From contig JAIEQG010000087.1 in NCBI GenBank assembly GCA_019747905.1, positions 71,905 through 135,904 on the forward strand: a DNA stretch of 64,000 nucleotides, given 5' to 3'. This DNA is from Burkholderiales bacterium. Lineage in GTDB: Bacteria; Pseudomonadota; Gammaproteobacteria; Burkholderiales; Ga0077523. Below, one piece after another: positions 2,308-50,268 of this stretch (the first letter of the stretch is position 1; each line of letters starts with the position of its first letter). The notes beneath the pieces are model-generated. The model was not told where the DNA came from. It saw only the letters and a list, made by a program, of their open reading frames with translations, and did not search any database. The translations under genes were made by a program, and so were the position numbers.

Positions 2308-3066
2308 TCAAGTCTCGGCCGGCACGGGCGCGGCGGTGCGTCTTGGCACGGGGGTGGTCTGCCACTGACCGTCCTTGCGGACGCCGAGCAGGCGCATCAC
2401 CCCGTCCTCGATGGTGACAAGGCGGTCGGCAGCGTCGATCACCTTCTTGTCGTGGGTGGAGAAGATGAAGGTGGTACGGGAGCGGCGATTGATGTCGCGC
2501 ATGAGCGCGAGGATGCCCTCGCCGGTCTTGTGATCGAGGTTGGCGGTGGGTTCGTCGGCCAGCACGATCTCGGGTTTCGTGACCAATGCACGAGCGATCG
2601 CGACGCGTTGCCGCTGGCCACCGGAGAGTTGGTTGGGCCGGTGCTTGCCGAACTTCTCGAGGCCGACCATCTGCAGCATCGCGTTGACGCGCTCTGCGCG
2701 ATCCTCCTTGTCGAGTTCCGGCATCTGCAGCAGGGGATACTCGACGTTCTCGAAGGCCGTAAGAACCGGAAAGAGGTTGAAGGTCTGGAAGACGAAACCG
2801 ATGTTGCGGGCGCGCAGGTTGGCGAGCTGGTCGGGCGTGCGGCCCGACACGTCGTGGCCGGCGATGGCAACCTTTCCCTTGGACGGGGTGTCGATGCAAC
2901 CGATGATGTTGAGCAGGGTGGACTTGCCGCTGCCGGACGGGCCGGCGATGGCCAGGAAGACGCCGCGCTCCACCGTGAGGGTTACATCGTCCAGGGCGAG
3001 CACTGTGTGCTCCCCCAGCCGGTACTCCTTGGTGACTCTATCGACTTCGACGACCGGCTCAGCCAT
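2308..3066 (-). CDS. ABC transporter ATP-binding protein, LolD/MacB-like subfamily
   Basis: Walker [10 protein letters not shown], signature [15 protein letters not shown], Walker [14 protein letters not shown]-loop FSTHD. The N-terminal pattern VTKEY..G...V.AL..V.L.V..G is typical of the LolD/MacB/FtsE group. Confidence 0.9.
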
Positions 3067-3134
3067 GGGTTTTCGTGGTACTTGAGGTTTTTGGAATTAT
3101 CATACTGAGCCACAAGGAAAAAGACGAGACGACA

Positions 3135-3920: not shown

Positions 3921-4017
3921 CCCGCGGGGTCGATTTTCGCCTCGGGAGCGCCGCGATCAGCGGCGCTGCCGGCCCGTCCGTCCCAAGAAACCCCGGTTGC
4001 GCGCCGTGGATCACGCC

Positions 4018-13905: not shown

Positions 13906-16900
13906 ATGATCTGGCGATTCGACTCGATCCGTTCCCTCATGGCGCCAGTGGGTACCCGTCGGCGCAAGGGTCAGAAGGCGGGAGCCGCTTCCGCCGATGC
14001 CCCCAATCGAGACAGGAAGGCGCCACCGTTCCGCCGCCGGCCCCTGTTCGAGGCACTCGAGCAGCGGCTGCTCATGTCGGCCGACACCGTCCAGATCATC
14101 CAGGGCGGCACCCAGGTGGACGGCAACATCACCGCCGCGGGCGAGACCGACCGTTACTCGTTCACGCTCACCGAAGCGAAGCAGCTCTACTTCGATGCGC
14201 TGACCGACACGCCCTTCAACTGGTCGCTCGAGGGGCCTGCCGGCACGCTGGTGAATGCGCGCAGTTTCCAGGGCTCCGATGCCCAGGACCTCAGCACTTC
14301 GCCGGTCCTCGACTTGAAACCCGGCGACTACATGCTCAGCGTCGACGCCAACCTCGACGCCACCGGTGCCTATGGCTTCCGCCTGCTCGATCTGGGTCAG
14401 GCCGGCACACTGACGCCGAACATCACGGTGTCCGGGCAACTCGATCCCGGCCGCGAGACGGATGCCTATCGGTTCACCGTGCAGGAGGGCGAGCGCTTCT
14501 TCTTCGATTCGCGGTCGGTGTCGAACACCAATGGCCAATGGCGCCTCGTCGATCCGTTCGGCGACCAGGTGTTCGCGACCAATATCGGCACCGACATCGA
14601 GCCGCCGGTCCTGACCAAGCCGGGTACGTACACGCTGTTGCTCGAAGGGCGACGCACCCAGGCCACGCCGATCAACTACCAGTTCAACGTGCAGAAGGTG
14701 GTCGACGAGAACGCAGCGCTCACGCTCGGCGCCCTCGTGAACGGCAGCATCGCGCATGCGGGCCAGCAGGACTTCTATTCGTTCGCGCTCGCGCAGCGCT
14801 CGCGCGTGTATCTCGACTCGCTCACGAACACCGGGATCCACTGGACGCTGACCGGGCCCAGCGGCGTGATCGTCGATTCGCGTGGCCTCAGTTCCACGGA
14901 CTCGAGTACCGTCGGATCCAATCCGGTGCTCGATCTGGTGGCCGGGAGCTACACGCTCCGGCTCGATGCTGCCGGCGATGCGACCGGCGACTACGCATTC
15001 CGCGTGCTGAACCTCTCGGCGGCCCCGACGCTGGTGCCGCTGCCCAGCGGCTCCACCCCGACCACTGCGACTCTCAATCCGGGTGCGAGCACGCTCCTGT
15101 ACGGCATCGACGCAGCCGCCGGCGACCGTCTGTTCTTCGATCGCCAGAGCCAGAGCGGCGGTACCGTCCACTGGCGTCTGGTCGATCCCTACGGCGGCCT
15201 GCTCTTCTCCAGCAATTTTTCCACGGACGTCGGCAATCTCACCTTGACCGCCGCCGGGCGCTACACGCTGCTGATCGAAGGTCATCCGAGCAACGCCGTA
15301 CCGATCGATGTCGTCTTCAATGTCGAGCCGCGCGGGAACCTCGTCGCGGAACGCACCACCTCGTTCGGCGACGAATTCGACGGCACGCTGAGCAGCAACT
15401 GGCGGCTGGAAACGCCGCGCGATGGCCAGGCGTACCTCGGTACGCCGAACTATCGGTTCGAGACGCTCGATGGCGCCCAGGTGCTGCGTCTCGACAACGA
15501 TCTCAACAACTCTCAGCGTGTGGCCTTCGGTTCCACCAGCGTGTTGCCGTCCGCGGCGAGCTTCCGCTACGAACTGCGCTTCAACACGCTCACCCAGTCC
15601 TTCGCGACCGGGGTCGAAGGGCTGCTCGAATTCTGGTTGGTCGACGAGGCCGACCCGAGCCGGTTCATCGCGGCCGCGGTCTATGGCGGACCCACCGGGC
15701 TCGACCGGCGCCTGTTCTCCAACGCTCCGCAAGGCGGCGGCTTCGTGAATCAGACGCTCGCCTTCGCCGACAACACGTGGTACCGCGCCGTGATCGAAGG
15801 GTCGCCGACGCAGGCCATGAAGGTGTCGATCCTGAGCGACGCCGGCACGGAGCTCATGAGCCGGACCTTCACCGTCGGCACCGACCTCTTCGCGAACGGC
15901 TTCCGCGTGGGCTTCGGGCAGTCCACGTCATCGCCGAATCGACTCGCGCCGATGGACGTCGCGATCGACTACGCGCGCGTGACCGCCACGCCGCTTGCCA
16001 CGACACCGCTGGTGTTCGACACCCTCACCACAGGGACGCGTACCGTCGCCAACCAGCGCGACGTCTATACCTTCAGCGTCGCCGCCGACACGATCGTCTA
16101 TTTCGACACACGCACCGACACCGGTGCGATCAACTGGACTCTCAAGGGGCCGTCCGGGACGCTGGTCGCGAACCGTCCGCTCTCACAGTCCGACGCGCAG
16201 GACGGCCGACCGTTCTACCGGCTCGTGGCGGGCGAATACACGCTCACCTTCGCCGGCACCGGCACCGGCGCCTACACCTTCAAGCTCGGCAACGTGGCGA
16301 GCGGCACACCGATCACGCTCGGGACATCGGTCAGCGGTGTGTTGAGTCCCGGCAACGAAACCGACGTCTACCGCTTTGCTGCCAATGCCGGCGAACGCCT
16401 CTACGTCGACATGCAGACCGTGCAGAACGGCGACGGCTGGTGGCGGCTGCTCGATCCGAACGGCGACGAGGTATGGTCTGCCGGGATCAGCACCGACAGC
16501 GGCGTGCTGGCGATGCCGCACACGGGCACCTACACGCTGATGCTCGACGGCCGCCGTTACTACACGGTGGACAACGCGTACCGGTTCAACGTCTCCCGTG
16601 TCGTCGATACCACGCGGGCACTGGTCCCCGGTGAAAGCCAGGGTCTCGGACCCTACTGGTCGACGGGGCCGACCGGCAACGCGCTCGAGTTCGCAGATCT
16701 CGACTATGTCGAGGTGCCCCACGGCAGCGCCACCAATCTTGCGGGCAGCATGACGTTCGAGGCGCGCGTACGCATCGACAGCTTCGTCAACACGTGGACG
16801 CCGATCCTCTACAAGGGTGCCAACAGTCCCGGTACCGGCAATGAGTGGCAGTTGCGGACCTTCTCGCTGTACGTCAACAGCGATGGCCGACTGTCGATGA

Positions 16901-22900: not shown

Positions 22901-25900
22901 CCCAGGCCACCAGCAGCGCGAACGGCCGCTGGCGCCTGATCAGTCCCTTTGGTGACCTGGTGTTCGAGCAAGCGCTCGGCACCGACGCCGAGATCTTCAC
23001 GCTGCCCAATGCCGGCGCCTACACGCTGCTGTTCGAAGGGCGCCGCAACAACGCGGCCACACCCATCACGTTCGCCTTCGCCGTGACGCCGGCGCCGGTG
23101 CGCGCGCCGCTGGCGCTCGACGGCCTGCAAGGCCAGCCCGGGCCGGATCTCGTTGCCACCGACGTCGAGGTGCTCGGGACCCTCGAATCGGGGCAGACTC
23201 TCACCGTGCGCTGGCTCGATCGCAACGCCGGTAACCTCGATGCCGGTATCAGCTGGCGCGATCGCGTGATCGTGCGCAACACCACGACCAACGAAGTCAT
23301 CGCGAACGTGCTGCTGCCGGTCACCATCGGCGGTGCGCAAGCGCCGTTGGCGCCCGGTCAGTCCCTGCAACGCGAGTTGGCGTTCGCGCTGCCGGAAGGG
23401 GCCCGCGGCGCCGGCAATCTGTCCGTGACCGTGACCGTCGACGTGGACAACGCGCTGGCCGAACAGAACGCGACCCAGACCGCGGAGAGCAACAACGAGA
23501 CCGCCATTTCGGTGACGAGCGTGCTGGCGACCTACGCCGATCTCTTGGTGGGCGGGCTGCAGGTGAATCCGCCCACGGCCTGGGCGGCGGGCGCTTCGGT
23601 CACGCTCTCCTGGCGCGTCGACAATTCCGGTACGCGCGCGGTGGATGCGGACTTCGTAGACGCGATCCAGGTCCGTAATCTCACCACCGGCGCGGTCGTC
23701 TACTCCACCAACCTGACCTACGACCCGGCGGTGCCGGGCAATGGCCCCATTGCGCCCGGAACCGGCCGCGACCGACAGCACACCTTCTCGTGGCCGACGT
23801 CGGGAGCCCAGGGCCTGTTCGAGTTCCAGGTGATCACCGATTCGGACGGCACCGTGTTCGAAGTGAACGGCACCGGCACGGGTGAGACCAACAACGCGAC
23901 CGCGCTCACCATCGCCTCCGCGCCTGACCTGGTCGTCGAGAACCTGCGGCTCGACCCGGGGCCGGTGGAATCCGGCGCGCTCCTGGTGCTGCGCTGGGAC
24001 GACGTCAACCTCGGTACGTTGCCCGTGGCGGCCAACTGGCGCGACCGCATCGAGGTGCTCAACACGCGCACCGGCGAGACGCTGCTGGTCTCCGACCTGC
24101 TGCACGATTCGGCTCCTGGAGTCGACGGCATGCTCGGTGCCGGCGAGCGCCACGCCCGTGCCTTCTCGTTCCGAGTGCCGGACGGTGCGCGCGGCGCGGG
24201 CTTGCTGCGAATCACGGTCACCGCCGATCGCACGGCCGCGAACGGTTCGGCCATCCTCGAGGCGAACACGGCGGGGAACGCCGAGGTCAACAACGCGGCC
24301 ATCGTCGAAGTCACCTCGGCCGAACGCGCGTATCCCGACCTGCGCGCGTACGACCTCAGTGCACCGCCGAACGCGCGGGGCGGCGACACGTTCCTGGTGA
24401 ACTGGTCGGTGGCGAACGACGGATCCGTGGATGCCGTCGGCGACTGGATCGATCGCGTCGTGTTGTCGCAGGACGCGATCTTCGGCAATGCCGACGATCA
24501 GGTGCTCGGCACGCGTACACGCACCGGCGGACTCGCAGCCGGCGCCTTCTACGACGCATCGCTGTCGGTGACGATCCCGACGCAGCTCGAAGGCAGCTTC
24601 AACCTGTTCCTGCGCTCGGACGCCACCGGCGTCGTGATCGAACCCGACACGCGCGCCAACAACGACACCGGGCCGCGCGCCGTCTCGCTGTCCACGCCGT
24701 TCGCCGATCTCGCCGTGGAAGCAGTGGCAGGGCCGCCCGCTGCGCCGTCCGGCAGCCGGCAGGACGTGACCTGGCGCGTGCGCAACGTCGGCGACACCGC
24801 GATCGCCGGGACGGCCACCTGGAAGGACCGCGTCTACCTGTCGCTCGACGATGTGCTCGACGCGGGCGATGTGCTGCTCGGTGATGCGGTCCGCAATGGC
24901 CCGCTCGCGGTTGGGGAGGCCTATACCAGCCGCACGACCGTCACGCTCCCGAATGCCATCTCCGGCGAATACCGGTTCATCGTGGTCTCCGACGTGGAGG
25001 CCCAGGTGTTCGAGCGTGGGCTCGAAGCGAACAACACCGGCGCAGCGTTGCTCGCAACGGCCGTGAGCGTGGCGCCATCGCCCGATCTCGCGGTCTCCGA
25101 CATCACCGTGCCGTCCACGGCGTTGACCGGTACCACGGTCCCGATCACGTGGAAGGTCACCAACATCGGTGAGGCCGCCGCGACCGGCACGTGGGTCGAT
25201 CGCATCTACCTGTCGCCGGACGGCACGCTCAACGGCGCGTCGCTCCTCACCACCGTGAATCGCCCCGTGCCGCCCGCCGGCCCGGAATCGCTCGCCGCCG
25301 GCGCGTTCTACACGGGTAGCGCCAACGTGGGGCTGCCGTCCATCGCCGATGGGACCTTCCGCATCGTGGTCGTGACCGACGCGGTGGGCCAGGTGTACGA
25401 GACCCTGCGGGAGGCGAACAACGAGGCGACGAGTACCACGACGTTGTCCGTTGTGCACAACGACCTCGAAGTGACACAGGTGACGGTACCGCCGACAGCG
25501 ACGTCCGCCGGCGTGCTCGACATTTCCTGGCAAGTGCGCAATGGGGGCTCGGCCGTCATCAGTCAACCCTGGGTCGATCGCATTTACCTGTCGCGCGACC
25601 AGTTGTGGGATGCGAACGATCGCCTCCTCACCGAGCGCGCCGGGCCCGGATCGCTGGCGGTGAACGCCACCTACGGCGGCAGCGTGAGCGTGACCGTGCC
25701 GGTCGAGGTGTCCGGCGACTGGTTCGTGCTCGTGCGCACCGATGCCGGCGGCACCATCGTCGAGTACAACGCGGAGAACGACAACGTCGGGACCGCGCCG
25801 CTCGCCGTTTCCCTCGCGCCCTACGCCGACCTGCAGGTCTCGAACGTCACCGCGCCCGCGCTCACCATCCAGGACCCGGCCCGGGTGACCATCGGCTGGA

Positions 25901-28900
25901 CCGTGACCAATGTCGGCACGGGTCTGGGCATCACCGATCGCTGGATCGACCGGATCGTCGCTTCGCGCGACGGTATCGCCGGCAACGGGGACGACATCAC
26001 GCTCGCTCAGTTCGAGCGAGCAGGCTTCCTTGCCGTGGGCGATCAGTACACCCGCAGCGAGAACCTGATCCTCGCGCCGCGCTTCTCCGGCCGTTACACG
26101 CTGTTCGTTATCAGCGACGCTGCCGGCACCGTGTTCGAGAACGCGCTCGAAACGAACAATGCCTCGGCGGCGCCGCAGCCGTTCGACGTGATGCCGGCGC
26201 CCTATGCCGACTTGCAGTTCGTGACCGCGTCGGTGGATGCCACGGCGGAGTCGGGCGGGACCTTCGACGTCTCGTGGCGGGTCGAGAACCGCGGCATCGC
26301 GCGCACCGACCAGGTGAGTTGGTCCGACTCCGTGTTCATCACGAGCGATCGCGAAGGCCGCAACGTCGTGTCCGGAGCGGGCGGATCCTTCGACCACCTG
26401 GGCGCTCTTTCTCCCGGGTTCGGCTACGACCGCACCGGGCAGGTCGCCGTCGACGACGGTCTGACCGGCACCTTCTACGTCTGGGTCAGGACCGGCGGAC
26501 CGTTCGAGTTCATCTACGACCAGGACAACACGACGTACGCCGGCCAGATCGTGATTTCTCTGGCGGCAAGTCCGAATCTGCAGGTGACCGACATCGTGGT
26601 ACCCACCGAGTCGCTCGAAGGCGAGCTGGTGGAACTCACCTGGACCGTGCGCAACACCGGCCAAGCCCGAGCCGAAGGGCCTTGGACCGATTCGGTCGTC
26701 ATGCGCAAGCTCGGCGGCGACACCACGGTCCCCCCCGTCTCCCTCGGCAGCTTCACGTATGCCGAAGGGTTGGACGTCAACACCTTCTATACCCGCACCG
26801 AGCGCATCCGGCTGCCGTCGAGGCTCGAGGGGGCGTGGCGGGTCGAAGTCACCACCAACCGGAACCAGTCGCTCTACGAGCACGGCGCGGCGGCCGCGGA
26901 CAACACCACGCAGGACGACACGGCGCTGCTGCTGTCGCTCAAGCCGCGCGCGGACCTGCAGATCGAGAGCCTGACCGGGCCCGATCGCGTCAGCGCCGGC
27001 GGCACGGTGTCGGTCACCTTCGACGTCGTGAACCGCGGACCGCTCGCCGCGAACGGGCGGTGGTTCGATGCCGTGTACCTGTCCCTCGACAACAAGCTTG
27101 GCGGGGACGACATCCTGATCGGGCGCATCCAGAACGGGTCGGCGCTGGAAGCGGTCGATGGCCGCTACTCGCAGGCGAGCAGCACGCTCACCATTCCGCT
27201 CAATTTCAGCGGCAGCGGCTTCCTGATCGGCGTGGCGGACATCGACAACGTCATCGACGAGTATCCGCGCGACGACAACAACGTGCTCGCGCGCGCCATT
27301 CTGGTCGATCCGCTGCCGCCGCCCGATCTCGTCATGAGCAACGTCGTGGCGCCCGATCAGGGCGTTTACAGCGGCGAGATCGAGGTGCGCTTCAGGGTGA
27401 CCAACAACGGGTCCGGCATCACCGATCGCGAGACCTGGAGCGACACCATCTGGCTCGCCCGCGACAAGACCCGTCCGACACCGGGCGGCAACGGCGGCAT
27501 CCTGCTCGGCACGTTCACCCACACCGGTCGCCTCGAAGTGGGCGAATTCTACGAGCGCACGGTGAAGGTCCGCCTGCCGTCGGTCATCGAGTCGGGTACC
27601 TACTACGTCACGCCGTGGACCGATGCGTTCAACGCGGTGGTCGAGACCAACTTCCCGCAGAACGTCAACCCGGACGACCCGTCCACACTCGACAGCAGCA
27701 ACTTCAAGGCACGGCGCATCGACGTCATCGGCAACCCGACGCCCGCGTTGCCGGATCTGATTCCGCTCGATGTGACCGCCGACCCGATCGGCTCCGTCGA
27801 CGGCCCGTTCACCGTGCGCTGGACCGTGAAGAACAACGCCGAGGGCGACGCGCCCGGCGACTGGTTCGACTACGTCTACGTGCACGACCAGCCGGACCTA
27901 TTCACTCCCGGAACGAAGAGCTGGCTGCTCGGTGCCGTCGGGCGGCCCCAAGGGCTCGCCTCGGGCGAGTCCTACGTGAGCAGTCTGTCGGTCGAGCTGG
28001 CGCCGGCCGTGAGGGCCCGCTACGTCACGGTGCTGGTGGACGCCGACCCCATCGTGCGCATCGTCGAGACCATCGAGACCAACAACTCGATGACCAGCAC
28101 GACCTCGATCGATACGCGCATCGCCGACCTACGCCTGGCGTCGGTGGAGGTCCCGGTGGGAGGGTTCTCCGGCGAAGAGATCGAAGTGCGCTGGACCGTG
28201 GTCAACGACGGCGGCGCCGTCTGGAAGGGCACCAGGAGTTGGCAGGACGTCATCTACGTGTCGCCGGACCCGGTGTTGCGTCCCGAGCGGGCGCTCAAGA
28301 TCGGATCCAAGACCTACGACAACAAGAACGGGTTCGCCGCGGGCGCTTCCTACACCGAGTCGCTCAAGGTCAGCCTGCCGCGCGGCATCGAAGGGCAGTA
28401 CTACATCTACGTCATGACCGACGATGCGCCGCGCCCCTCGCTCGACGTGAACCAGGGCGACAACACCCGGACCCGGGGCTTCTACAGCGGCCGGGTGTAC
28501 GAGGAAGCGTTCGACGCCCTCGACCCGCGCTCACTGAACAACCGCAACGTCGCCGGCATTCCGGTCATCTACCGCGAACCCGACCTGGTGGTCTCGACGC
28601 TCGTGACGCCGATCGATCCAGTCAACTCCGGCGACCTGATCAACATCCAGTTCACGGTCAGGAACGAAGGCAATCGGGCCACGCGCGAGGACTACTGGGT
28701 CGACCGCGTCTACCTGTCGCGCGACCCGTCGCTCGATTCGCGCGACCTCGAGCTCGGCACATTCATCCGTCGTGGCGGCCTGGCGGAGCAGGCGAGCTAC
28801 ACCCGGTCCCTGCAAACGCGTCTGCCTGACGGCGCATCCGGCCAGTGGTACATCATCGCCTACACCGACTCCGACGTCCGCGGCGCCACGCCCGCGGGCA

Positions 28901-34900: not shown

Positions 34901-37900
34901 ATCGCATCCAAGACGGCACCCTGACTGCACTCCAGGGAAGCCTGCCGACCGTCACGGTCGCCGCATCGAACCTGCCGGCCGGGGCCACCTTCGATCCGGC
35001 AACGCTGCAGTTCGCCTGGACGCCCTCGTACACCCAGGCGGGCACCCAACTGATCCGCTTCACGGCGACCGACGATGGCGACGGCACCGGTGTGCCGGCC
35101 GTCACGATCGTCGACGTGCCGATCGTCGTCGGCAACGCCAACCGCGCGCCGGTGCTGACCGAGCTCACCAACCAGAGCGCCGACCGCGGTGCCGTGGTGG
35201 ACGTGCCGTTCAGTGCGATCGACCCCGACGGCAACCCGATCGTCCTCACCGCGACCGGTCTGCCGCGCTTCGCTTCGTTGATCGACCAGGGGTCCGGCAA
35301 CTGGGTGCTCCGCCTCGCACCGGGAGATCAGGATCGCGGAGACTACGTCGTGACTCTGGCGGCCAGGGACGACGGTGACGGTGGAAGCCCCAAGGCGGCG
35401 CTCACCGCGAGCCGTACTTTCGTCATCACCGCCAACTCGCTGTCGGAGCCGCCGTTGCTCGACCCCGTGGGTCACAAGGTGGCGCTGATCGGTCAGGAGC
35501 TGGTGGTGCAACTGACCGCCACGGACCTGGATCAGGACCCGCTCACCTTCTCCGCCATCGGCCTGCCGCCGGGTGCCACGCTGCAGCCTGGCATCGGGTA
35601 CGGTACCGGGGTGCTGCGCTGGACGCCGACGGGCCCGGGCAGCTTCGACGTGACGCTGCGCGTGACCGATAACGGCAACAACGGTACCGGTCCGGTCGGC
35701 GAAGCGGTGGAGACCATCCGCATCGTCGCGCGTGCCACCAATGCGGCGCCGATCCTGCTGCCGATCGGCGACCGGACTGTGGGCGAAGGCGAACGGCTCG
35801 AGGTGGTACTCGCGGCGGTCGACCCGGACGGCGATCCGCTCACCTATTTCGCCGACAACCTGCCGGCCGGCGCCACGTTCGATGCGCGCACCGGCGTGTT
35901 GGTGTGGATTCCATCGTTCTTCGAAGCCGGCACCTATCGGGACATCGTGTTCGGCGTCGGCGACGGCGCGGCCACCAGCACCGAAAGCATCGCGATCACC
36001 GTCGAGCAGACCAACCGGTCGCCGTTCCTGGTCGGCATCCCGCCGATCGGCGGCCAGGAAGACCGCGTGCTGCAGTTCTCGCTGGTGGGATCGGATCCGG
36101 ACAACGACGCGATCGTGTATGCGCTGGTCGCCGGCAACCAACCCGGCGTGTTCTTCGATCCGCTCGCCGGCACCTTCGAGTGGACGCCGAACTTCGATCA
36201 GGCCGGGACGTACACGTTCACGTTCGAAGCGCGCGACTTCGCCGGCCTCGTCGATGCCATCGATGTGCAGGTGTCGATCGCCGACGTGAATCGGGCGCCG
36301 GTCATCCAGCTCACCAATCGTCTCGCGCAACTGGGCGAGCGCCTCGAGTTCACGATCGGCGGGTCCGATCCGGATACCAACGAGACGCTCGTGTTCTCGG
36401 CCGCCGGATTGCCGGAAGGCGCGACCCTGGACCCGGTGACGGGGCGTTTCATCTGGACACCGGGTCCCGGCCAGTCGGGCGATCATCTGGTTCAGGTCAG
36501 TCTGAGCGACGGCAAGACCGCCACCATCCGTCCGCTCGTGATCCGTGCCGCGCAGCAGCCGCAGGAACCGGCGCTGTCGGTGGAGGTCACGCCGTCGTTC
36601 CCCTCGGTCCCGGGGCAGACCGTGACCGCCACCGTGCTCGCGGAAGCCTTCTCCGCCATCGCGAGCCGCAGCCTTACACTGAACGGCGTCGCTCTCACGC
36701 TCGACGAGCGCGGGCGCGCCACGTTCCTCGCCGGTGCGCCGGGGCTGTATACGCTGGTCGCGGGAGCCACCGATCTCGACGGCGTCACCGCGCGAGTGGA
36801 GAAGATCTTGCGCGTGCGCGACCCGGCGGATACCGCCGCGCCGGTCGTCACGTTCGACGTCGGCGTCGGCGGGCGCAAGCTGGTTTCGCCCTTCGCCATC
36901 GGCGGCGAGGTCGCCGACACCAATCTCGACAGCTGGATGCTTGAGATCGCACGCGCATCGGGCGACGCGTTCGTCACGCTCGCCTCGGGACGCACCACGA
37001 TCGACGGGGTCCTCACGACGCTCGATCCACGTACGCTCGAGAACGGCTTCTATCGCCTGCGGTTGTCGGCGGTGGACATCGCCGGACGTCGCTCGGAGCG
37101 GTTGGCGGACATCGAAGTCGCGACCACCGAGAAGCTCGGCCGTTACCTCACCGCGGTCACCGACTACACGGTGAATCTCGGCGGCAAGACTCTCGATCTC
37201 GTGCGCCGCTACGACTCCCTCGCGGCCGGCATCGAGTCGAGCTTCGGCTACGGCTGGAGCCTCGCGCTGCGCGACGTTCGCATCGAGACCGACGTGCCGC
37301 TCACCGGCAACGAAGCCTCGGGTGGGCATGGTCCGCTGCGTACGGGCTCGCGGCTGTATGTGACCACGCCCAGTGGCGAGCGGGTCGGGTTCACGTTCGC
37401 GCCGGAACAGGTGAACGGTCCGGGTTACGCGTATTTTCTGCCGAAGTGGATCGCCGATCCGGGTGTCGACTGGACTCTCGAATCGGTCGACGTCAAGCTG
37501 CAGCGCGGCAACGACCGGTTCTACGTGCTCGCGGACGGCGCAGCCTACAACCCGGCTGCTCTGTCGGGTGAGCGTGCCCAGTACACCTTGACCGCAACAG
37601 ACGGCACGCGCTATGCCATCGATGCCGCGCGCGGCGTGACCGGCATCACGTTCGCGGATGGCACCCGGTTCGCGGTGAGCGACAGCGGCATCACCGGTCC
37701 GGGCAACGACAATGTTGCCTTCGTCCGCGACGCGGCAGGGCGCCTCGAACGGATCCAGACCAACGACGGGCGGTTGTTCGACTACGACTACGACGCCGCC
37801 GGCAATCTCGTGTCGGTGCGCAATCTCGCGCTGGGCAGCTCGTTGCGGTACGCCTACGCCGATCCCGAGGCGCACTTGCTCACGCTTGTCACCGGACCCA

Positions 37901-40900
37901 CCGGCGGCCAGACCGTCGAGTACGGTGCCGGCGTTACCGTCCGCACCATCAACGCCGACCTCGGCGCGGCGCTCAATTATCTCTCGCGCACCTTCACCGG
38001 TACGCTCGATGCAGGCGCAACCGAGCTTTACAGCTTTGCCGTGCGGCCCAGCGAGATCGGCCTGCCCCAGGGCGGTGCTGCGCTGATCGGCGTGATCGTG
38101 GAAGCGGCGGCGGGTTCCGCGCTGCAGCCTGCGCTTCCGGCGATCGACGGTCTCACGCCGATCGCATCCAGGGCCGAGGGCGGTCGTGCCTTCGCGCTCT
38201 ATCGCATCGACGAGGCCGGTCTCAATACACTGCGGGTGTCGGGTTCGGGATCCGGCGGCTACACGCTGTCGTTCTTCGCGGCGGGCGACGCCGACGGCGA
38301 TGCCGATGTCGACGGCGCCGATGCAGCGCTGCTGGCCACGGCGCGCGGTGCCGGCGCCTATCTCGCTGCCGGCGATGCGGATCGCAACGGCGTGGTGGAC
38401 GCATCGGATACCCAGTTGCTGTTCGCCAACCTGGGGTTCGCGCCGAACCGGGCGCCGACCGCGCTGGCCGGGACCGGTTTCACGCACGTGGACCTCGAGA
38501 CGCCGATCGCGATGCTGCCGCTCGCGACCGACCCGGAAGGCGATCCGCTGATCGTGCGCCTGACCGGAGCGACCAACGGTACGGTACGACTCTCCGGCGA
38601 CGGGCGCACCGCGCTGTTCACGCCCGAGGCGGGATTCTCCGGCACCGCCACGTTCAGCTTCGTGGCCGACGACGGCTTCACCCTGTCCGCGCCGAACACG
38701 GTCACCGTCACCGTGAGCGCCGCGCCGCTCGTGAGCATCGACTTCATGGCGCGCCAGCCGCGCATCGGCATCGGCGGCGGCACGCAGCTGCAATTCATCG
38801 GCGACTTCGCCGATCAGACCGGCGTGCTGCTGCCGGGCACGTACCTGAGCCTTTCCAGCACCAACGGTACGGCCGGGCAGGTGCGGGCGGATGGGCGGTT
38901 CCTCGGCGCTGCCCAGGGCTACGGCGCCATCGTGGCCGCGCGCGGTGATATCCAGGCCGCCACCGCCTTCATGGTGGGTGCGCCCGCGGACATCGCCGAC
39001 GCGGCACTGGCGACACTCGGCCTCACCTCCTATCCCGGCGCCGTCACGCTGGTGGCCAACACCGGCTCGCGCCAGATCCTGCTGTCCGACCCGCTCGAAC
39101 GGGACGTGGCGGGCGGAGTCTCGGGCACGCGCTACTTCTCGAGCGATCCCTCGATCATCGAGATCACGGCCGACGGTCGCATTCTCGGCAAGGCACCCGG
39201 CGAGGCGATCGTCACCGCTATCCACAAGATGGCCGAGTCGCGCATCGCCGTGAAGGTGGCGACGCCGCAATCGGGTCCTGCCACCGTCGGAGCCGACGGC
39301 GGAGTCGTGCAGGGCGACAACGGCATGATCGTCGCCGTGGCCCCCGGTGCTCTGGACGGCGAAACGACGGTCTCGTTGCAGACAGCCGATCCCGCCAGCT
39401 TCGGGGTGCCGGTGCCGCCCGCGGATCTGGGGTGGCAGCTCGGTGCGGCGTTCCGCCTCGACGTCGGCGGCGACCCGATGAAGACTGCCGCGCAGCTCGC
39501 CATTCCCACGGCACTGGCCGCAGGAACCGCGGTTTCGTTCTATCGCCTGCTGGATGTGCCGGCGCCCGACGGTTCCGTCACCCGCGGCTGGCTCGAGGTG
39601 GAGACCGGGGTGGTCGATGCCGACGGCGTCGCGCGCACGTCTTCGCCGCCCTATCCCGGCATCACCGGCAGCGGCGACTACGTCGTGCTCGGCATCACGC
39701 CGGGTCAGCTGGTGCGGGCCAACATCACGCTGGAAGACATCGCGGAAGTGAGTTTCGGCCTGTTCCAGGCGGCTCAGGCGCTGCGGCCGTTGATCGCGGT
39801 CTCGCCCGGACTCACCATGTGGGCGGCCGCCTCCGCCGCGGCGACGTACGTGCTGACCCTGCCGCCCGGGCAGCACAACATCACCGTGCGCGCGCTCGGA
39901 CCCGACGGCAACGTGTACGACTCGACGCCGCGACGGGTGGAGATCCAGCAGGGCGCGAACCTGCAGGTGCGCTCGGACATCGTCGCCAACTTCGATCCGA
40001 ACGCCACCCGGCCGCAGATCGGCGGCCTGTTCGGTCTCTCGCCGGCGCGGGTCCAGCTCGAGGACATCGGCAGCGGACTCGAACCGATCCTCACCATCCG
40101 CGGCCAGAAACTGCTGTGGGCACCGCCCGGCGCGCCGGCAGTTAGCGGCAGCCAGCTGGGAACGGAGAATGCCGACGTGCGGGTGATCTTCCGCGCCGAC
40201 GGACGCGAGGTGGCCTCGGCAACCGTGATCCAGAGCAACAACCTCGCCGGCGGACTGCAGGAGATCAAGGTTCGCGTGCCGCAGAGCGTCGCGATCGGCA
40301 CGGTGACCTTCGAGGTCAAGCGCACCGGTTACACGCTCATCAGCCTGCCCGACGGGTCGCCCTACTGGCTCCCTTACACCTCGGAATCGAGCGACGCGGT
40401 GCGCGTGAATCCGGAAGCACGCTTCGTGTTCGCGGCCGGCGGCGGGGCGGACAACGTGCTCGCCATCTCGATGGCGGCCGGCACGAACTACGACGCGAAC
40501 GAGATCGTGGCCCGCATTCCGGTGGGCGATCAGCAGTCGAGCGTGCCGTACATCGATGCGAACGGCAATCCTGCCGTTCGTACCGACGTCGGCGTGCCGA
40601 ACGTGCCGCGCGCCGTGGCGGTCACCGGCGACAACACCCGGGCGTACGTGACGCTGCGGGGCATTCGTCCGAACGGTGAAGGTACCGGCGTCGCCGTCGT
40701 CGATGCGATCACGCTGCAGCAGATCGATGCCGTGCCCGATGTGGCGACGCTGCCGCTCACGCAGGGCGTGCAGTACATCCGTCTCAACGTGCCCGATGCC
40801 CGTCCGTTCTGGATCGTGGTGGACGATGCGCAGCGGCTCGCGTTCGTCGGTGACGAGGGCTATTCGCCATCGCTCACCGGCGAAATTTCGACCGGCGGTC

Positions 40901-43900
40901 GCATCTACGTGATCGACATCGACCCGTCTTCGGAGACCTATAACCAGCAGATCGGCACTCTCACAATACGCTTGGGCAGCACCGATCTGGCGCCGCTCGG
41001 GTTGCGCGGCATGGTGATGTCCGGAGACGGACAGCTGCTGCTCGCCGCACCGGACAAGTGGGCACCCGGGCAGCTCGCCACGGGGACGCGGATCAAGCCC
41101 GGCAACCTCATCGTCGGCGACGTGCGCAACATGCGTGCGCAGCTCGCGGTGTCGTCCAACCTCAAGGTGGAACAGGTGCTCAACGTCGGGCCCGATCCCT
41201 ACGGCATCTCCACCACGTCCGACGCGAACCGCATCATCTTCACCAACAAGGGCTTCGATGGCGATGCCCAGCCGGGTGTGGGTCTCGCGCGCGCCGGCGG
41301 TATCGGACTGCTGACGCGCACGCCCGGCAGCCGGACCTGGAACACCCCGACCTACCTCGACATGACCCTGGGATCGGCAGTCGACGACCTCGATCTCAAC
41401 AGCGCCCAGGGCGTGATCGTTACGTCCGATCTCAAATATGCGTTCGTCACCGGGTTCAACACCTTCAAGCAGGGGGTGCCGTCGGCCGACCCCGACATCT
41501 CGCGGCGCAACCCCGCCGGCGGTAACGTCGGTGTCATCCGCGACCCGTTCAACCTGTTCCCCGCGATGTCCAAGAAGGGCCTGGTCGCCGTGACCCGGCA
41601 ACTGCCATGGTCCAGCCCGGACAACCTCGCGCTCTCGTCGGACGGCAAGGTGCTGTGGGTGGCCTATGCGGGCATCGGGCAGGTCGCCGGCTACAGCGTG
41701 GAGGCACTCATCAACGCCGTGGAGACGATGCTCGCCACGACGCCGCCCGGATGGCCGCAAAGCGATCCCAGATTCGGTCTCACGCTCAACTACTACAACG
41801 CAATCAACAATTTCATCTTCGACGCGAGCGGGCCGGTCTACGTCAGTACCAATCCCGGTGCCGGGCCGCCGCTGATCGATGCGGCCACCGGTGCCCAACT
41901 CGTGAACGGGTTCGGTGCGCCACTGTATCGAGCCCCGAGCGGTGAACTCTTGTTCGCACCGAACACGCTGATCGATCTCAAGGCCGACTTCCGCATGCCG
42001 ATCGGCGCCAGCACCACGGTGTTCTCGAACTTCGATCCGGCACGCGCGCCGCTCAACGGCGGCATCCTCGTTCGGGGGCTCGCGTCGCAGAACCAGGTGC
42101 TGACGCTCATCGGCCCCGATGCGAACGCACAGACGCCGGACAGCACGCCCAAGTTCGAGTGGAAGGTCAACTCGAACGACGTGGAGACCACGTTGTACGT
42201 GACGGCGTCGCGCGGCGGCGAAGGGCTGTTCCCGAAGCTGCTGCCGGACGGAACCGACGCGTATGCCCATCGCATCCTGACCAAGACGTTCGCCCCCGGG
42301 GCTGCCGGTGCGACCCAGTCGTTCGAGCTGCCGCGCGAACTCCAGTTGACCCAGGGCCAGACCTACTACTGGGCCGTCGAAGCGCGAGCCGGCGACGGAC
42401 GGGTCTATCGCGATTGGCGTTCGTTCAAGGTGGAAACCCCGACGACGCCGGGCGTGCCGCCCACGGGGTACAACGGCGTCGTGGTGCTGATCGACGGCTT
42501 CGAGCTGCCCTACACGTCACTAGAGCTGGAAGGGCGCGAGAAGGTCACCAACAACCGCATGCGCGATTTCGCCGATCGAATCGCGGGTGGCTACGGCGGG
42601 GTGATCCTCGAACAGAGCGACTCCGGCTGGGTGGTGCGCGGCGGTCCGGCGTCGGCCGCGGCGGATCCGTATCAGGCGGCACTCGGCGGGGCGGTCGTGC
42701 TGATGCCGAAGTGGGCGAAGGAAGTCGTCATGAACGACTCCGGCTTCGCCGAAGCCGCGGCCGATCAGATCTTCGCCGCCATCGCCACTCTCCTCAAGGA
42801 CCCGGTCCATGGCACGCAGTTCCGCGATGCCGCGTGGAATTTCGTCGGGTTCTCGCGCGGCGCCTCGGTGGCGTCCGAAGTGATCCAGCGCCTCGCCACC
42901 TTCTTCCCGGCGAGCGCGCCCGACGGTCTGCAGAACGTCCGTCTCACGACTCTCGACGCGGTGGATCCGCCCAACGTCGACATCGCCGCCACGCTGGCGC
43001 AGCTCTCCAGCACCGCGGCCGACGCGGGCCGCCTGTTCGACCGCTACGTGCAGGCGATCACCAGCTATCAGGTCGTCACCGGCGAGACCCACATCGACTA
43101 CAGCCGGCTGTTCGATCCCGACGTCCGCACCTGGTCGAACATCTACTTCCACGACAACTACTACGGCGGGCGGCCGGGGGGCGGGTCGATCCCGTCGTCC
43201 GATCTCGAACTGGATCTCACCGGGCGTGCCGGCTTCACCGGCGGCGAGATCTTCCCCGGCATGCCGCTCGCGAATGCGCGCACGCTGTCCTGGTACGTCG
43301 GCACTGCGTCGTTGTCGGCGCGGCAGGCGCCGTTCGTCGACAAGGCCGTGCCCACGGCCGATCGCATCTGGCGCTCGGTGGTGGATGTCGGCTACCAGCC
43401 CAAGACCTCGTGGCTGTCCGACACATCGCCCGACGGGCTCGCTTTCAACAGCAGGTTCGCGCCCTACTCGAACACTCCCTGGTATCGCGCGCGCGACAAC
43501 GAGGCCACCGGCAGTGTTCTCGGCCTGAGTTTCTCGGGCACCGTGCCGGTATGGAGCATCACCGATCCGATCGGGAACGGCACCTTCGATCCCTTGACCG
43601 ACACCGCGCCATGGGAAGGCATCGGACAGGGCTGGTTCTACTCGTACCTCGGCGGGGCGACGTTGATTCCGTTCCGTCAGTCCCCCAACTTCGAGCGCGA
43701 GCAACCGTTCCGCGACAACACCGAGTTCGGACGCGGCGACGGTGCGGTGCCTTCCATCTACAACGGCAACTTCCAGGCGTCGGCGCGACCGGTCGTCGGA
43801 CGGTTCGTGCCGACCGGGTCCTTAAGCGTGATCGAGCCGTGGCTCGAAGTGCCGGGGTGGTCCTTGCGCGGGAGCGACGGCGGCCGGCTGCAGGGGCTGC

Positions 43901-46900
43901 AACTCATCCCGACATACACCACGGCGCTTGCGGGCGGTCTGCGCGGGCAGTTGCTGAACGCGGCCACCGCGTCGGGTTTCAGCGTCGATCCCGGCCGCGA
44001 CGCCGGCCTCGCGTACGATGCCCTCCGACGTTTCGGTCAGTTCTACCTGACCGAATACGATTCGATCCTCCAGGGCGCCAATCTGGCCGGCGGGGCGTTC
44101 GGCCTGAGGGACATGGTGACGGCGATGGTGCCGGCCTTCAACCAATACCTGGCGAGCCTTGCGAGCCAGGGAGCGCGTCTGGCGGTGCTCGATGCGCTGA
44201 AGGTGTACGAACCCGACCTGACCGGGGTTGCCTCGGGAGGAGATGTGGCGACCAGGGCGGCCATGAAGCTGGCTCAGGAATACTTCGCCAACTGGTCGTT
44301 CCGTCTCGACAACGCGGCGCCGAGCGCGGGTACGGCGAAACTGCAGCACAACTGGATGTTCGTGCCGCCGTCCGTGTCCTATCTCACGTTCGCACTCGAT
44401 CCGGAGGGTGTCGCCACCGGCTCGCTCAACGTAACGATGGAAACGACGAGCGGCAGTGTCGTCACCCTTGGCACGATCAACCTGGACGCGCTGCCCGACG
44501 GGTTTACCACGCAACGGATCGCACTACCTTCTTCAGTCAAGGGGGAGGTGGTCAAGCTGACCTTCGAACTCGCGGCATCGGGGTCGACCAGCGTGCTGAT
44601 CGACGACATCAAGTTCGACGGTCTGCTGGTGAGCGATACCAGCGGGGCCGCGGGCGACAGCCAGGTACTGTTCCTCGACGATACGGATCCGAACGGCTCG
44701 GGAACGCCCGCGCCGGGGACCGACATCGTGTACGCGCCGAACAAGAACATCCACGAGATCACGATCACGAATCCGGGCACCGACAGCATCGTCGTGCGCG
44801 TGGCGGTCGAAGCGAACGACTTCCTCGTCGGTCTCGATGCCGGTGGGGTAGAGACGCTCTACAACGACGGGCAGGACCATAACCTCGGCGACACCATCAT
44901 CACCGGCGGGTCCAGTCTCACGCTGAAATTCAAGTCGGCGCTCGATCTGCAGGACCTGTTCGGGTCCGGGCGCGTCGACGTCAACACCTTCACCTACGAC
45001 CAGTGGCTGATGCAGGGGATCCTGAAGCTGTCGGTGCTGGACGCGGTCGGCGGCAACGAGCTCTCGGGCCAGGACGTCAGGCTGTACTACCTGGCCGACA
45101 TCGGCGACAGCGACGTGGATGACGGCGTGCTGGAGATTGCGCGCACGCGCGATGGCACGACAAGATCGTTGCAGATTCTCAACGACACGGACCTGGAGAT
45201 CGAAACGGCCGGTACGCTGCCGGCTCGCTTCCAGGTCACGACCGCGGGCGGGCCGGTATCCGAACTGCAGTTCACGGCAGTGGGGAACGACGGTAGCCCG
45301 GTGTCGGATACGCTCAAGATCAGATCGAACGACGCGGTGCTGGGTGAACTCAAGGTCCGTGGCCAATCGGTGCGACAGATTGGCATCCATGTGGATCTGG
45401 CTCAGTTCAAGAACTACTTCCGGAACTTCTACAACGCCCTCGTGGCGTACCAGACCAACCCCGGCACCTCGAACCTGACGGCGTTCGATCAGGTGCCGAC
45501 GGCTCTGATCGATCCGGACATGCCAGGGCTGGGTCCGCGGATCGATGGCTATCAGCCGTTCATCGACCGGATGTCCTTGGGTAACCTCGAGGCGAATCTG
45601 GATGCGCTGATCGCGGGATTGCGTTCGGCCATCGAAGACGTCTACGCCGGCTTCTACGGTTCGGCGCTAAATCTCGTCTTCACTTCGGGTGCATCCAACG
45701 TCGTCGTCAATGTCAGCGACGCCAGTTCGCCCCTGGGGTCCTCCCAACAGGATGTCGACTACAAGGAGATGTTCGGTGTCGACGGGTTCCTGGACGGCAC
45801 CCAGTTCACCAACCCGCCGGCGAGTCCGACCTGGACCGCTCGCCGGGACCTGACGCCGGCAGCGATCCGCTTCAGGGTGGATTCCACCCTGAACAACAAT
45901 CCCAGCGACAGCATGAATCTGTTCCCGGCGATGAACATCCTGACCATCTCCGCATCGATCCTGTCGACTTCGCTACCGACATCGGTCGGCACCGCGGAGA
46001 ACTATGGCCGATGGACCGGGTTCACGATCGCTCACGAGCTGGCGCATTCGCTGGGCCTGTTCGACGAGTACTACACTCCCAACAATACGGGCTTCCTGCC
46101 GATCGACGCCAAGCTCACGAGCTTTGCGAACCCCGTGCCCAACAGCGGTGCGCCAGACTACCGGTTCAGCACGAGCTTCATGAACGATTCGGCGCTCGCG
46201 CTCGACGCAGCGGGACGCATCCGAATCGACGTGGAGAAGTTCCACAAGGGCTTGTTCGCTCTGGCGCTCAACGACCAGGCTCTCGCGGACCAGTACTGGG
46301 GCTACGACAGCAACCAGGCCGCCATTGGCTTCAAGTTCGGCGACGACCTCGGGACGCTCCTGGCCGTCAACGCGTACAACTACCCAGGGAAGTTCGTCCC
46401 CAAGGACTCCGGGCTTCTGGACATGTCGGATGCATTCGTAGGGAACGCCGCGGCGGTTCAGCAAGTGTCGTCGCCACTGCTGACCATGCCGCCCTTGGCC
46501 GAATGGGCACTGCGCGGGGCGGCGCAGCAGCAAGGAGGCAGGTTCGACCTTGCCGAAGACGCTGCCTTGCTGACCCGCGCGGCACGTACGCTCGCTGTCC
46601 CGACTGCCGCGCGCACCCTTTCGTTCCAGATCCTCGATGCGGATTTCGACGCGATCGGCCGCGGGCCGCAGGATGCCTTCGAGGTGGCGCTGCTCGACCC
46701 GACGACGGGCGCGTCGCTGCTTGGCAGCATCGGGCTCACGCGCACCGATGCGCTGCTGAACATTCAGGCGGACGGTGCGCTCCGACGCGCCGCGGGCGTG
46801 AACCTGTCCGGCATTGCAGGCGATGTTTTCCCAGGCGATGTCACGTCTCCGATCGTCGTCACGATCGACCTGACAGGTCTCAATGTGTCGAACGGTGTCG

Positions 46901-49413: not shown

Positions 49414-49492
49414 TGGGGTTCAGCGTCGAGCAATTTGACAAATGGGGGCAACGCGGGACAATCAATCTTTAATAATCAGTGCATTATGGTCT

Positions 49493-49555: not shown

Positions 49556-50212
49556 ATGCGGCTCTTCAAGTGGATTTCGGCTGTTCTCGGAACGTTTCTG
49601 CTGGCCCCGGCAAACGCGTTCGCCTTCCCTGTCGACGTCTCGTTCACCAGATGCATCTACGACGCGGCGCCGACGCCGCAGTGCATCGATGTCGTCCCGA
49701 CGCTTCCGTATGTGAACGAGGTACTCAACATCACATTCTCGGTCACCGGTGGCGCCAGCGGCATCAGCGGACTGTACGTTGACCTCATCCCTGACACGCT
49801 CTTCCCTTCCTTCGACGAAAGCAACCTCGCTTACATGAAGAAAGCGAACGACTCCGGTGCAGCGACTGACACGGGGTACGATTACCTACCAGGCGTTTCC
49901 GTCCAGTGGCGTCTGTATCCTAAAGCGGTCGGCGCGATCTTCAACGTCGCCGACGGTGGGATCGTCGATATCGTCTTCACAGAAATCCTGGCCAAGGCGG
50001 ATCCCGCGAGGCCCTTCACGTCGGTGATGGGCTTCCAAATCTGTACCGTTAATCCTAACGGGGACTCGACGTGTGAGCCGGGTTCGGTTCCTGTCAGCTT
50101 CGTGGTTCCGAACGGCGCCAACAGGGTTCCCGAACCCACCTCTCTGTGGCTGGTGTTGGCTGCGCTCGTGGCGGGCGCCGCGGTATTCCGCAAGGGTTCG
50201 AACCGCTCCTGA
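49556..50212 (+). CDS. PEP-CTERM sorting-domain protein (exosortase substrate) 2
   Basis: Signal peptide MRLFKWISAVLGTFLLAPANAFA. The C-terminus ...ANRVPEPTSLWLVLAALVAGAAVFRKGSNRS has VPEP, a TM helix and a basic tail. Its codon usage is visibly less GC-rich than that of the neighbouring genes. Confidence 0.85.
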   Translation: MRLFKWISAVLGTFLLAPANAFAFPVDVSFTRCIYDAAPTPQCIDVVPTLPYVNEVLNITFSVTGGASGISGLYVDLIPDTLFPSFDESNLAYMKKANDSGAATDTGYDYLPGVSVQWRLYPKAVGAIFNVADGGIVDIVFTEILAKADPARPFTSVMGFQICTVNPNGDSTCEPGSVPVSFVVPNGANRVPEPTSLWLVLAALVAGAAVFRKGSNRS

Positions 50213-50241
50213 CGAACAAGAAGCGAGCGATGTGCACACTG

Positions 50242-50268
50242 TCGGCGCCGTAAGGCGCCGATTTTTTT
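50242..50268 (+). terminator. Rho-independent terminator after PEP-CTERM gene 2
   Basis: TCGGCGCC-gtaa-GGCGCCGA is a perfect 8-bp GC stem followed by TTTTTTT, 30 nt after the stop codon. Confidence 0.85.

Follow-up and report, generated by a model that had tools for sequence, protein, structure and literature searches.

The stretch of DNA analyzed here (the window) comprises 64,000 nucleotides from a Burkholderiales bacterium (assembly GCA_019747905.1, contig JAIEQG010000087.1, positions 71,905 to 135,904). At positions 13906..49413 of the plus strand it carries a giant open reading frame (ORF) that starts with ATG and has its sole stop codon at the end. The ORF listing and the translation exactly reproduced the uninterrupted frame of 11,835 aa that an earlier note on this DNA had described. 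We confirmed that this ORF is a genuine and intact gene, and its product is probably a secreted or cell-surface protein. The gene is located on a 143-kb contig of a Burkholderiales metagenome-assembled genome (MAG) and is followed by the genes MBX9631957.1 to MBX9631962.1. Computed from the translation, the product has a mass of 1,252 kDa and an isoelectric point (pI) of 4.45. It contains two Cys residues among 11,835 aa (0.02%), at positions 5659 and 5801, and 0.46% His. A scan of the sequence revealed no transmembrane segment, except for one borderline window inside an Ig repeat.

The GC contents at the three codon positions of the giant ORF are 0.648, 0.496 and 0.865, in a host genome of 66% GC. 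The strong bias at the third position (GC3, 0.865 versus 0.496 at the second position) is the signature of a true coding sequence. According to our own arithmetic, a random sequence of 66% GC contains about 0.024 stops per codon and the probability of 11,835 open codons is about e^-284, which rules out that the frame is open by chance. The codon bias is uniform and the frame unbroken through the whole 35.5 kb, the sequence contains no N bases, and the start codon is conserved: loci at 94%, 79% and 75% identity align from residue 1. At the DNA level the internal repeat copies are at most about 70% identical and the longest exact repeat in the 35.5 kb has 23 nt, so that repeat collapse or mis-joining is unlikely. 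A collapse artefact as the source of the ORF was rejected, as there are no long or near-identical internal repeats. Two long ORFs on the minus strand within the gene, 32977-42270 (3,097 aa) and 22153-27885 (1,910 aa), are shadow ORFs and not genes because GC3 of the giant gene is 0.87.

Modules were called with Pfam and NCBIfam on protein tiles using curated cut-offs, and repeat units were counted with hidden Markov models (HMMs) built from the giant itself. Matches above the cut-offs were obtained for LEPR-XLL, PPC, SO2946-like_C, Laminin_G_3, CARDB, Big_5, He_PIG, Big_9/Cadherin_5, RHS_repeat, Big_2, PKD_4 and the C-terminal Dockerin_1. These searches bear out the mosaic of adhesin-type repeats, lectin folds, enzyme-like modules and a dockerin in one polypeptide that had been proposed, and the self-built HMMs gave the same repeat numbers (10 PPC pairs, 17 CARDB and 9 He_PIG/cadherin units). 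The protein begins with a strongly basic leader (aa 1-67, pI 11.8), in which we looked for the hydrophobic core of a signal peptide and found none. Inside the leader lies the LEPR-XLL motif already suspected at the N-terminus (14044..14085, plus strand as for all modules of the giant; aa 47-60, ...FEALEQRLLMSAD). It matched NF012209 with 22.2 bits at a cut-off of 17 and is kept in relatives. The leader is followed by 20 PPC-like beta-sandwich units arranged in 10 pairs (14107..23079; aa 68-3058; self-built HMM and Pfam). Four inserts of about 240 aa separate PPC pairs, and the lectin folds expected there were identified with Pfam as one SO2946-like_C insert (15517-15969) and three Laminin_G_3/ConA-like inserts (16702-17178, 17908-18645 and 19216-19968). 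With the 17 CARDB-like repeats that come next (23143..29727; aa 3080-5274; Pfam and self-built HMM), beta-sandwich modules fill about 6,200 aa after the leader.

Positions 29833..32340 encode a 21st PPC unit (aa 5310-5381; Pfam PPC, 33.1 bits), a candidate IPT-like stretch, a block of about 385 aa, a DUF7619-like stretch (also 33.1 bits) and a candidate FN3-like stretch. The 385-aa block holds both Cys residues of the protein and showed no match in profile searches. A beta-propeller-like module (aa 6233-6395) and a Big_5 domain (aa 6466-6574) were assigned by Pfam at 32602..33627; the homologues P0044 and P0047 run collinear with the giant from about this point onward. The array of 9 He_PIG/cadherin-like repeats (34015..36522; aa 6704-7539; Pfam and self-built HMM) has one and three more copies downstream. 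It is followed at 37138..38715 by a YD/RHS fragment, a first dockerin-like EF-hand pair and a cadherin-like domain (aa 8181-8270), all found with Pfam. The YD fragment consists of two RHS_repeat matches and a weak DUF6531 match, and the EF-hand pair (DADRNGVVDASD at aa 8157) reached 16.6 bits, which is below the cut-off of 22.9. A Big_2-type Ig region (38731..39231; aa 8276-8442; Big_2 24.0 bits, cut-off 22.8) leads over to the conserved domain described in the next paragraph. Beyond this domain, 39799..42441 comprise Ig-like spacers, a beta-propeller region of about 530 aa (aa 8870-9400) and an Ig-like domain (TPKFEW...YYWAVE). This region has no Pfam match in the giant itself; the collinear stretch of homologues bears PF10282 or a YVTN name. 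Tile searches with aa 8450-10900 (about 2,450 aa) gave no Pfam, NCBIfam or PDB sequence match.

The most conserved module of the C-terminal part had been overlooked in the earlier domain map, most other modules of which were confirmed. It is a ZU5-like domain (39268..39705; aa 8455-8600), identified with AlphaFold2 and Foldseek. The best-conserved element of the C-terminal family extends from aa 8440 to 8632, and the ZU5-like domain is present in 26 of 26 homologues. The AlphaFold2 model, calculated with an alignment of 24 sequences, has a mean pLDDT of 83 and values above 90 in the core. A Foldseek comparison with the PDB yielded ankyrin ZU5-domain entries for all of the top 16 matches (E 2.4e-5 to 3.6e-3, the following ones 0.04 or higher), with a probability of 1.00 and a TM-score on the target of up to 0.64. 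The Pfam ZU5 model does not detect the domain. In a profile census of 1.84 billion cluster representatives we found 1,655 sequences at E <= 1e-3 and 240 at E <= 1e-30, and the longest protein had 7,711 aa. Between the last two strands of the domain lies a conserved loop with the pattern A-[RH]-T-x-[ST]-P-P, which reads ARTSSPP in the giant. ZU5, GPS and Nup98 domains cleave at this position. The CxH autopeptidase motif is absent from the domain of the giant, which does not contain any Cys. Judged from these sequence features, self-processing at the conserved loop is possible but unsupported, and the domain may act as a processing or docking site.

An alpha/beta-hydrolase-like domain is located at 42451..43308 (aa 9516-9801), with a GFSRG elbow around Ser 9650. 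An alignment of its family revealed the motifs THGF, IGxSRG, TTLDPHD and GxxHxRVxxWY, which would fit the HG oxyanion motif, the nucleophile elbow and the Asp and His of a catalytic triad. The giant and its close orthologue P0027 read IDGF, GFSRG, TTLDAVD and ANART at these sites; the Ser is kept and three family-conserved His residues are lost. In the structural model, GFSRG (aa 9648-9652) lies between a strand (residues 144-149 of the model) and a helix (151-166), i.e. a strand-elbow-helix arrangement at the Ser. Because of the three lost His residues, the domain, previously listed as a lipase-like candidate hydrolase, is probably a divergent, degenerate and inactive alpha/beta-hydrolase-like domain. 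None of the best 50 of 129 fold matches (E <= 0.001) to the model of aa 9501-10250 was a hydrolase; matches came from the jelly roll only. This CBM/MAM-like jelly roll, ending ...IDDIKF (44293..44625; aa 10130-10240; model pLDDT 70-88), retrieved CBM29, CBM16, CBM4 and MAM domains with Foldseek, with E-values starting at 2e-6.

The second candidate hydrolase is a module with an HExxH motif at 45403..46485. Its zinc-site motif HELAHSLGLFDEYY (46033-46074; aa 10710-10723) contains HELAHSLGLFD (aa 10710-10720), the sole HExxH in the giant, which fits the zinc-binding helix HExxHxxGxx[HD]; by our own estimate about 0.01 such motifs would be expected by chance in this His-poor protein. The full HExxHxxGxxD is kept in the orthologues P0027 and L012, and Xanthomonas P0049 has E instead of D at the last position. 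A search for a Met-turn found a tripeptide SFM about 50 residues behind the motif, which is common to P0027 and not to L012. From its conserved motif the module is plausible as a zinc peptidase.

The C-terminal end starts at 46504..48084 with a candidate second jelly roll (...IDDVRF; aa 10867-11022), three cadherin-like/Big_9 repeats, a He_PIG and a PKD module. Positions 48529..49410 encode a cohesin-like module (aa 11542-11628), Dockerin_1 (aa 11661-11723) and a tail of 112 aa that bears no sorting motif. Several of the assignments made earlier have weak or indirect support. The C-terminal dockerin passed its cut-off (24.6 bits, cut-off 22.9), whereas the first one did not. The first jelly roll matches the CBM/MAM fold, and the second, which has no Pfam match, is a candidate from its sequence motif and its conservation in homologues. 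The NHL-like propeller gave generic beta-propeller matches, and PF10282 of the YVTN-like propeller was found in homologues only.

Related genes show that the architecture is not unique to this contig. A sister species (about 76% identical) carries the gene on a 39.6-kb contig with a recorded product of 11,185 aa that is truncated solely where the contig starts, and the last 9.8 kb of its giant are stop-free in three independent assemblies. The N-terminal part of about 4,280 aa is open in L020 (complete-chromosome MAG OZ257154.1, 79% identity) and in L026. Across aa 4633-11834 the giant is collinear with the locus L012 (36-69% identity), and across aa 4530-9274 with the Aquabacterium locus L011 (39-52% identity). 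L011 joins L035, which bears a LEPR N-terminus, so that the Aquabacterium gene spans more than 39 kb. In L011 (16005-26102; JASGIQ010000001.1), the part behind the second propeller is replaced by a YD shell of the RHS/teneurin type that exceeds 4,159 aa. Frame changes occur in L011/L035 and in L012; those of the Aquabacterium bin, which is labelled as nanopore (ONT), fit nanopore indel errors, and L012 looks like a long-read assembly to judge from its contig name alone.

A search with aa 8451-11020 retrieved 26 proteins of 1,500-4,300 aa, mostly fragments, from Burkholderiales, Accumulibacter, Aquabacterium, Roseovarius, Xanthomonas and metagenomes. All align with the giant in the same order, which in some of them begins at aa ~6255. 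The C-termini vary within the family: a full RHS/YD shell is present in the Aquabacterium orthologue, P0038, P0045 and P0048, Endonuclease_NS in P0036, PT-HINT in P0052 and an S8 peptidase in P0046. Scanning the species-representative genomes of GTDB with aa 1-700 identified LEPR-XLL/PPC N-termini at 27 loci, among them Pelomonas candidula, P. caseinilytica, Ramlibacter montanisoli, Plasticicumulans lactativorans, Caldimonas, Rubrivivax and complete-chromosome MAGs. Planctomycetota and Verrucomicrobiota account for L030, L042 and L043 only. LE[PAQS]R motifs were found in 15 of the 27 loci, and many loci have the pattern LE[PAQ]R-x-L[LM]. In most of them the reading frame continues without a stop for more than 4,000 aa (4,000-6,500 aa), up to where the fetched DNA ends. 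By sequence comparison the giant was shown to belong both to the LEPR-XLL family and to a family of ZU5-type surface proteins, its C-terminal ~5,600 aa being a recurrent family in other proteins.

The gene directly downstream of the giant (49556..50212, plus strand) encodes a small PEP-CTERM protein of 218 aa (TIGR02595 19.8 bits, cut-off 16; GenBank name) in which a signal peptide precedes a domain of about 165 aa and a PEP-CTERM anchor. The gene is equipped with a sigma-70-like site of its own (49435-49462) and is followed by a strong terminator-like hairpin (50241-50262). Only four relatives exist in a collection of 5.8 billion proteins; orthologues include P0053-P0055. The gene also lies directly behind the giant in the sister species (synteny in L013-L016) and in the distant locus L012 (22113-22760; 29% identity, E 4e-11). 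This conserved pairing suggests a functional link. In the sister species (L013-L016) an additional cadherin/He_PIG protein of 819 aa is encoded between the partner gene and hemA (L013 11103-13562), which is not present in the window.

Upstream of the giant, the window contains genes for PrsT, a TPR protein of the XrtA/PEP-CTERM system (3997-6816, plus strand; TIGR02917 597 bits, cut-off 312), and for XDP1, an exosortase-dependent surface protein with a PEP-CTERM tail (6959-7873, plus strand; NF041927 182.6 bits, cut-off 125). Both lie 6-10 kb from the giant, with a sulfonate-type ABC importer in between, and suggest an exosortase/floc-type neighbourhood. In the related genus Aquincola, flocculation requires PEP-CTERM genes (PMC9850573). 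Between XDP1 and the importer a polytopic membrane protein of 452 aa is encoded (9567-10925, plus strand) that has no Pfam or NCBIfam match. The left end of the window (671-3920) comprises a cluster of genes for a DUF1302 protein, a LolD/MacB-like ABC ATPase and a LolA-like protein. Beyond the partner gene follow hemA-prfA-prmC, an AcrB-type RND pump with its membrane-fusion protein, and two genes of the PAS-GGDEF-EAL type. The latter are arranged in tandem on the minus strand (58855-61602 and 61640-63913) and would act in cyclic di-GMP turnover, which fits a biofilm or aggregation region.

Taken together, we favour the view that the giant is a secreted or cell-surface megaprotein which forms an adhesion or matrix scaffold fibre of this Burkholderiales bacterium. 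Its extracellular character is inferred from the composition, the acidic pI, the lack of transmembrane segments and of RTX repeats, and from domain types that are known mainly from secreted or surface proteins. Considering the two Cys residues, the pI of 4.45 and the absence of transmembrane segments, the protein could be exported in an unfolded state and would then fold outside the cell into a long, Ca2+-stabilised fibre resembling beads on a string. The PPC/lectin/CARDB stalk would present a distal head with binding modules, and the lectin and CBM-like modules might bind polysaccharide or other cells. Besides these, the head would comprise one plausibly active zinc peptidase and the probably inactive lipase-like domain. 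The terminal cohesin-like/dockerin pair could connect the fibre with other fibres or with a partner. The role of such a fibre would be cell-cell or cell-particle adhesion and the building of a floc or biofilm matrix, in concert with PEP-CTERM proteins.

A more far-reaching version of this model seems quite improbable to us. According to it, the giant and its PEP-CTERM neighbour would constitute an unrecognised exosortase-linked system, in which the small protein, planted in the surface by exosortase, captures the dockerin or the cohesin-like module of the giant. The ZU5-like domain would cleave itself at A-R-T-x-S-P-P and separate the stalk from the head, and the self-assembling megadalton scaffold of the floc matrix would be exported via a pathway that depends on the LEPR-XLL leader.

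Several observations weigh against the interpretation as a surface fibre. No type I secretion system (T1SS) is encoded in the window and no export system could be pinned down; nor is an exporter consistently adjacent to related LEPR giants, the neighbours of which differ between loci. The nearness of PrsT and XDP1 may be coincidental in view of the 6-10 kb and the ABC transporter operon between them and the giant. The small PEP-CTERM protein was considered as a possible cohesin-like protein, and the comparison spoke neither clearly for nor against this: hhalign with the cohesin-like module of the giant gave a probability of 0.1 and no detectable similarity. This module, which the earlier note had listed, is itself a weak match (16.1 bits, cut-off 24.1), and its profile found no match in the PDB. 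In the head, the model of aa 9501-10250 is poor (mean pLDDT 52.8; 60-78 in the hydrolase part), the profile of the hydrolase-like family had no match in the PDB, and the best Pfam match of the domain is the sub-threshold PE-PPE (E 0.06). Peptidase_M64 on the HExxH motif also stayed below threshold (14.2 bits, cut-off 26; E 0.025), and 31 of 34 weak PDB profile matches of the module were metzincins aligned over the zinc helix only (E >= 0.023). Furthermore, ten other assemblies of the same species, in which the downstream gene is identical and the C-terminus of the giant is covered over 145-1,569 aa, all break inside the gene, so that the full-length ORF of the host species rests on one contig.

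At two related loci, in Plasticicumulans lactativorans (L021, 4434-9368) and Caldimonas (L025, 96-3258), genes for an HlyD-type adaptor and an M50/PqqD-like protein of about 715 aa are found directly upstream of the respective distant LEPR-XLL giants, and L021 additionally has a SecA-like ATPase. This set could be a dedicated export system for these two proteins. As a general exporter of LEPR giants it was rejected, since among the related loci examined it occurs at these two only, it does not occur in the window, and unrelated housekeeping genes are found elsewhere.

The breaks in the ten independent assemblies are at the same time a hint at an assembly artefact, a chimera or a pseudogene, in which case the single ORF would not be present in the cell. 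The contig is metagenome-assembled, related long-read assemblies show frame changes, and the giant itself was not among the matches to its own aa 8451-11020 in the protein collection. We nevertheless consider this very unlikely, because one open frame with an even codon bias extends through the 35.5 kb, long or near-identical internal repeats that could be mis-joined are absent, the same module order recurs in three other lineages and the ORF of the sister species has at least 11,185 aa. The frame changes in L011/L035 fit sequencing errors.

The giant might instead be an effector of contact-dependent competition of the polymorphic-toxin type, with the ZU5, YD and propeller scaffold delivering C-terminal lipase-like and metallopeptidase effectors that are released at the target cell. 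Zhang et al. 2012 (PMC3482391) described that ZU5 serves for autoprocessing in polymorphic toxins of the RHS type, the active form being defined by CxH, and its combination with RHS repeats and propellers is a described architecture of such toxins; the exchangeable C-termini within the family (RHS/YD shell, Endonuclease_NS, PT-HINT, S8 peptidase) would also agree with this. However, the giant has a YD fragment only and no RHS core motif, its ZU5-like domain lacks the CxH reported for autoproteolytic ZU5, and no toxin domain could be recognised. Cohesin-like/dockerin modules form the end of the protein, its C-terminus is conserved and not polymorphic in orthologues at 44-78% identity, and the downstream gene encodes a secreted PEP-CTERM protein instead of a cytoplasmic immunity protein. 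An effector function is therefore unlikely. To a similar degree we doubt a cellulosome-like extracellular enzyme scaffold that would mainly degrade polymers (lipid, protein or polysaccharide) rather than adhere. Such a function would account for the dockerin above the cut-off, the weak cohesin match, the CBM-like jelly roll, the LamG lectin folds and the HExxH motif kept in orthologues. Zhang et al. 2012 (PMC3482391) also found ZU5 together with adhesion modules and lipases in "large bacterial cell surface proteins", and proposed that these remodel or degrade extracellular matrices. Yet the Pfam and NCBIfam searches detected no glycoside hydrolase or other confident catalytic domain across 11,835 aa, the lipase-like domain has lost three conserved His residues and more than 80% of the length consists of non-catalytic beta-sandwich repeats. 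All three alternatives are less well supported than the surface fibre.

The earlier interpretation was partly supported by these results. The term "undescribed architecture" was overstated, since the NF012209/LEPR-8K cut-off is passed, LEPR/PPC N-termini occur in 27 genomes, collinear orthologues exist and the C-terminal 5,600 aa correspond to a family sketched in PMC3482391. The giant is a good example of an unstudied and widespread family of very large proteins in Burkholderiales and not a new kind of protein. Three features had not been described before: the joining of the two module sets in one protein, a ZU5-like domain that lacks CxH, and the conserved PEP-CTERM partner. Such large proteins are rare, and apart from a few RTX adhesins they have hardly ever been studied; the locus provides a clean and uninterrupted reference for a family whose genes are broken up or frameshifted in most assemblies. 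Genetics is feasible, as the family has members in Burkholderiales that can be cultivated (Pelomonas, Ramlibacter) and also in Plasticicumulans, a gammaproteobacterium. The locus raises the questions of how a protein with a LEPR-XLL leader and no signal peptide is exported from a diderm cell, whether bacterial ZU5-like domains without CxH process themselves, and whether exosortase/PEP-CTERM proteins and giant fibres cooperate in floc formation, which is relevant to activated sludge. The ZU5-like module and the hydrolase-like module with its three lost His residues are invisible to Pfam, which illustrates that domain lists based on motifs only can both miss and over-call function.

Comparison with known systems agreed with the previous statement that the giant belongs neither to the RTX/LapA-like proteins nor to the autotransporters or two-partner secretion (TPS) proteins, and that it is neither a complete Rhs protein nor a PEP-CTERM protein; no such motif or domain appeared in the tests run. 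The giant resembles RTX adhesins exported by T1SS (LapA, BapA/SiiE type) in its megadalton size, tandem Ig-like repeats, acidic character and near lack of Cys, and a presumed Ca2+-dependent adhesion or biofilm fibre is common to both. It differs in its leader and domain set: RTX nonapeptides GGxGxD are absent from all 11,835 aa, and the flanks in the 64-kb window contain no T1SS genes for ABC, membrane-fusion and outer membrane proteins, the sole membrane-fusion protein being paired with the AcrB-type RND pump. Autotransporter beta-barrel or TPS domains had no Pfam match in any tile of the giant. Its tail bears neither a PEP motif nor a transmembrane segment, whereas the neighbours at 49556-50212 and 6959-7873 have the PEP-CTERM signature. 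With cellulosomal scaffoldins the giant shares a Dockerin_1 above the cut-off, a cohesin-like module in front of it and CBM-like modules; unlike in these systems, the cohesin match lies below its cut-off, there are no evident glycoside hydrolase partners, the host is a Gram-negative bacterium and both modules are part of one chain.

Long mosaic ORFs with dockerin, adhesion and carbohydrate-binding modules, many segments of which are visible only by structure prediction, are also known from the giants of Omnitrophota (West-Roberts et al., bioRxiv 10.1101/2023.11.21.568195). Those proteins have 30,000-85,804 aa, many transmembrane regions and SecA-like domains; the present protein has 11,835 aa and no transmembrane segment. 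The same authors call proteins of at least 10,000 aa "large" and reserve "giant" for at least 30,000 aa. The claim that our protein ranks among the largest bacterial proteins thus holds insofar as 10,000 aa or more are rare, and is limited by predictions that reach 85,804 aa.

The closest parallels are the two families to which the giant belongs. With the ZU5-type surface proteins and RHS toxins (PMC3482391) it has in common a ZU5 fold near a propeller and YD/RHS repeats, adhesion modules, and a lipase-like and a peptidase-like domain. It differs by the absence of CxH, of a complete RHS shell and of a toxin/immunity pair, and by the position of the ZU5-like domain about 8,450 aa from the N-terminus. 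The Rhs core motif PxxxxDPxGL and a complete YD shell were not found in the giant, which has two RHS_repeat matches and a weak DUF6531 only, and neither was a variable C-terminal toxin with an immunity gene. The LEPR-XLL motif is usually associated with Planctomycetota and Verrucomicrobiota; it is hardly mentioned in the literature, and the family is without experimental description. LEPR-XLL proteins (NF012209, model LEPR-8K) resemble the giant in the motif behind a basic stretch and in being large, repetitive and acidic proteins of extracellular type with a dockerin. That family is defined by a motif of 24 residues only; the giant adds to it a part of about 5,600 aa with ZU5, YD, propeller and enzyme modules, in a betaproteobacterial host.

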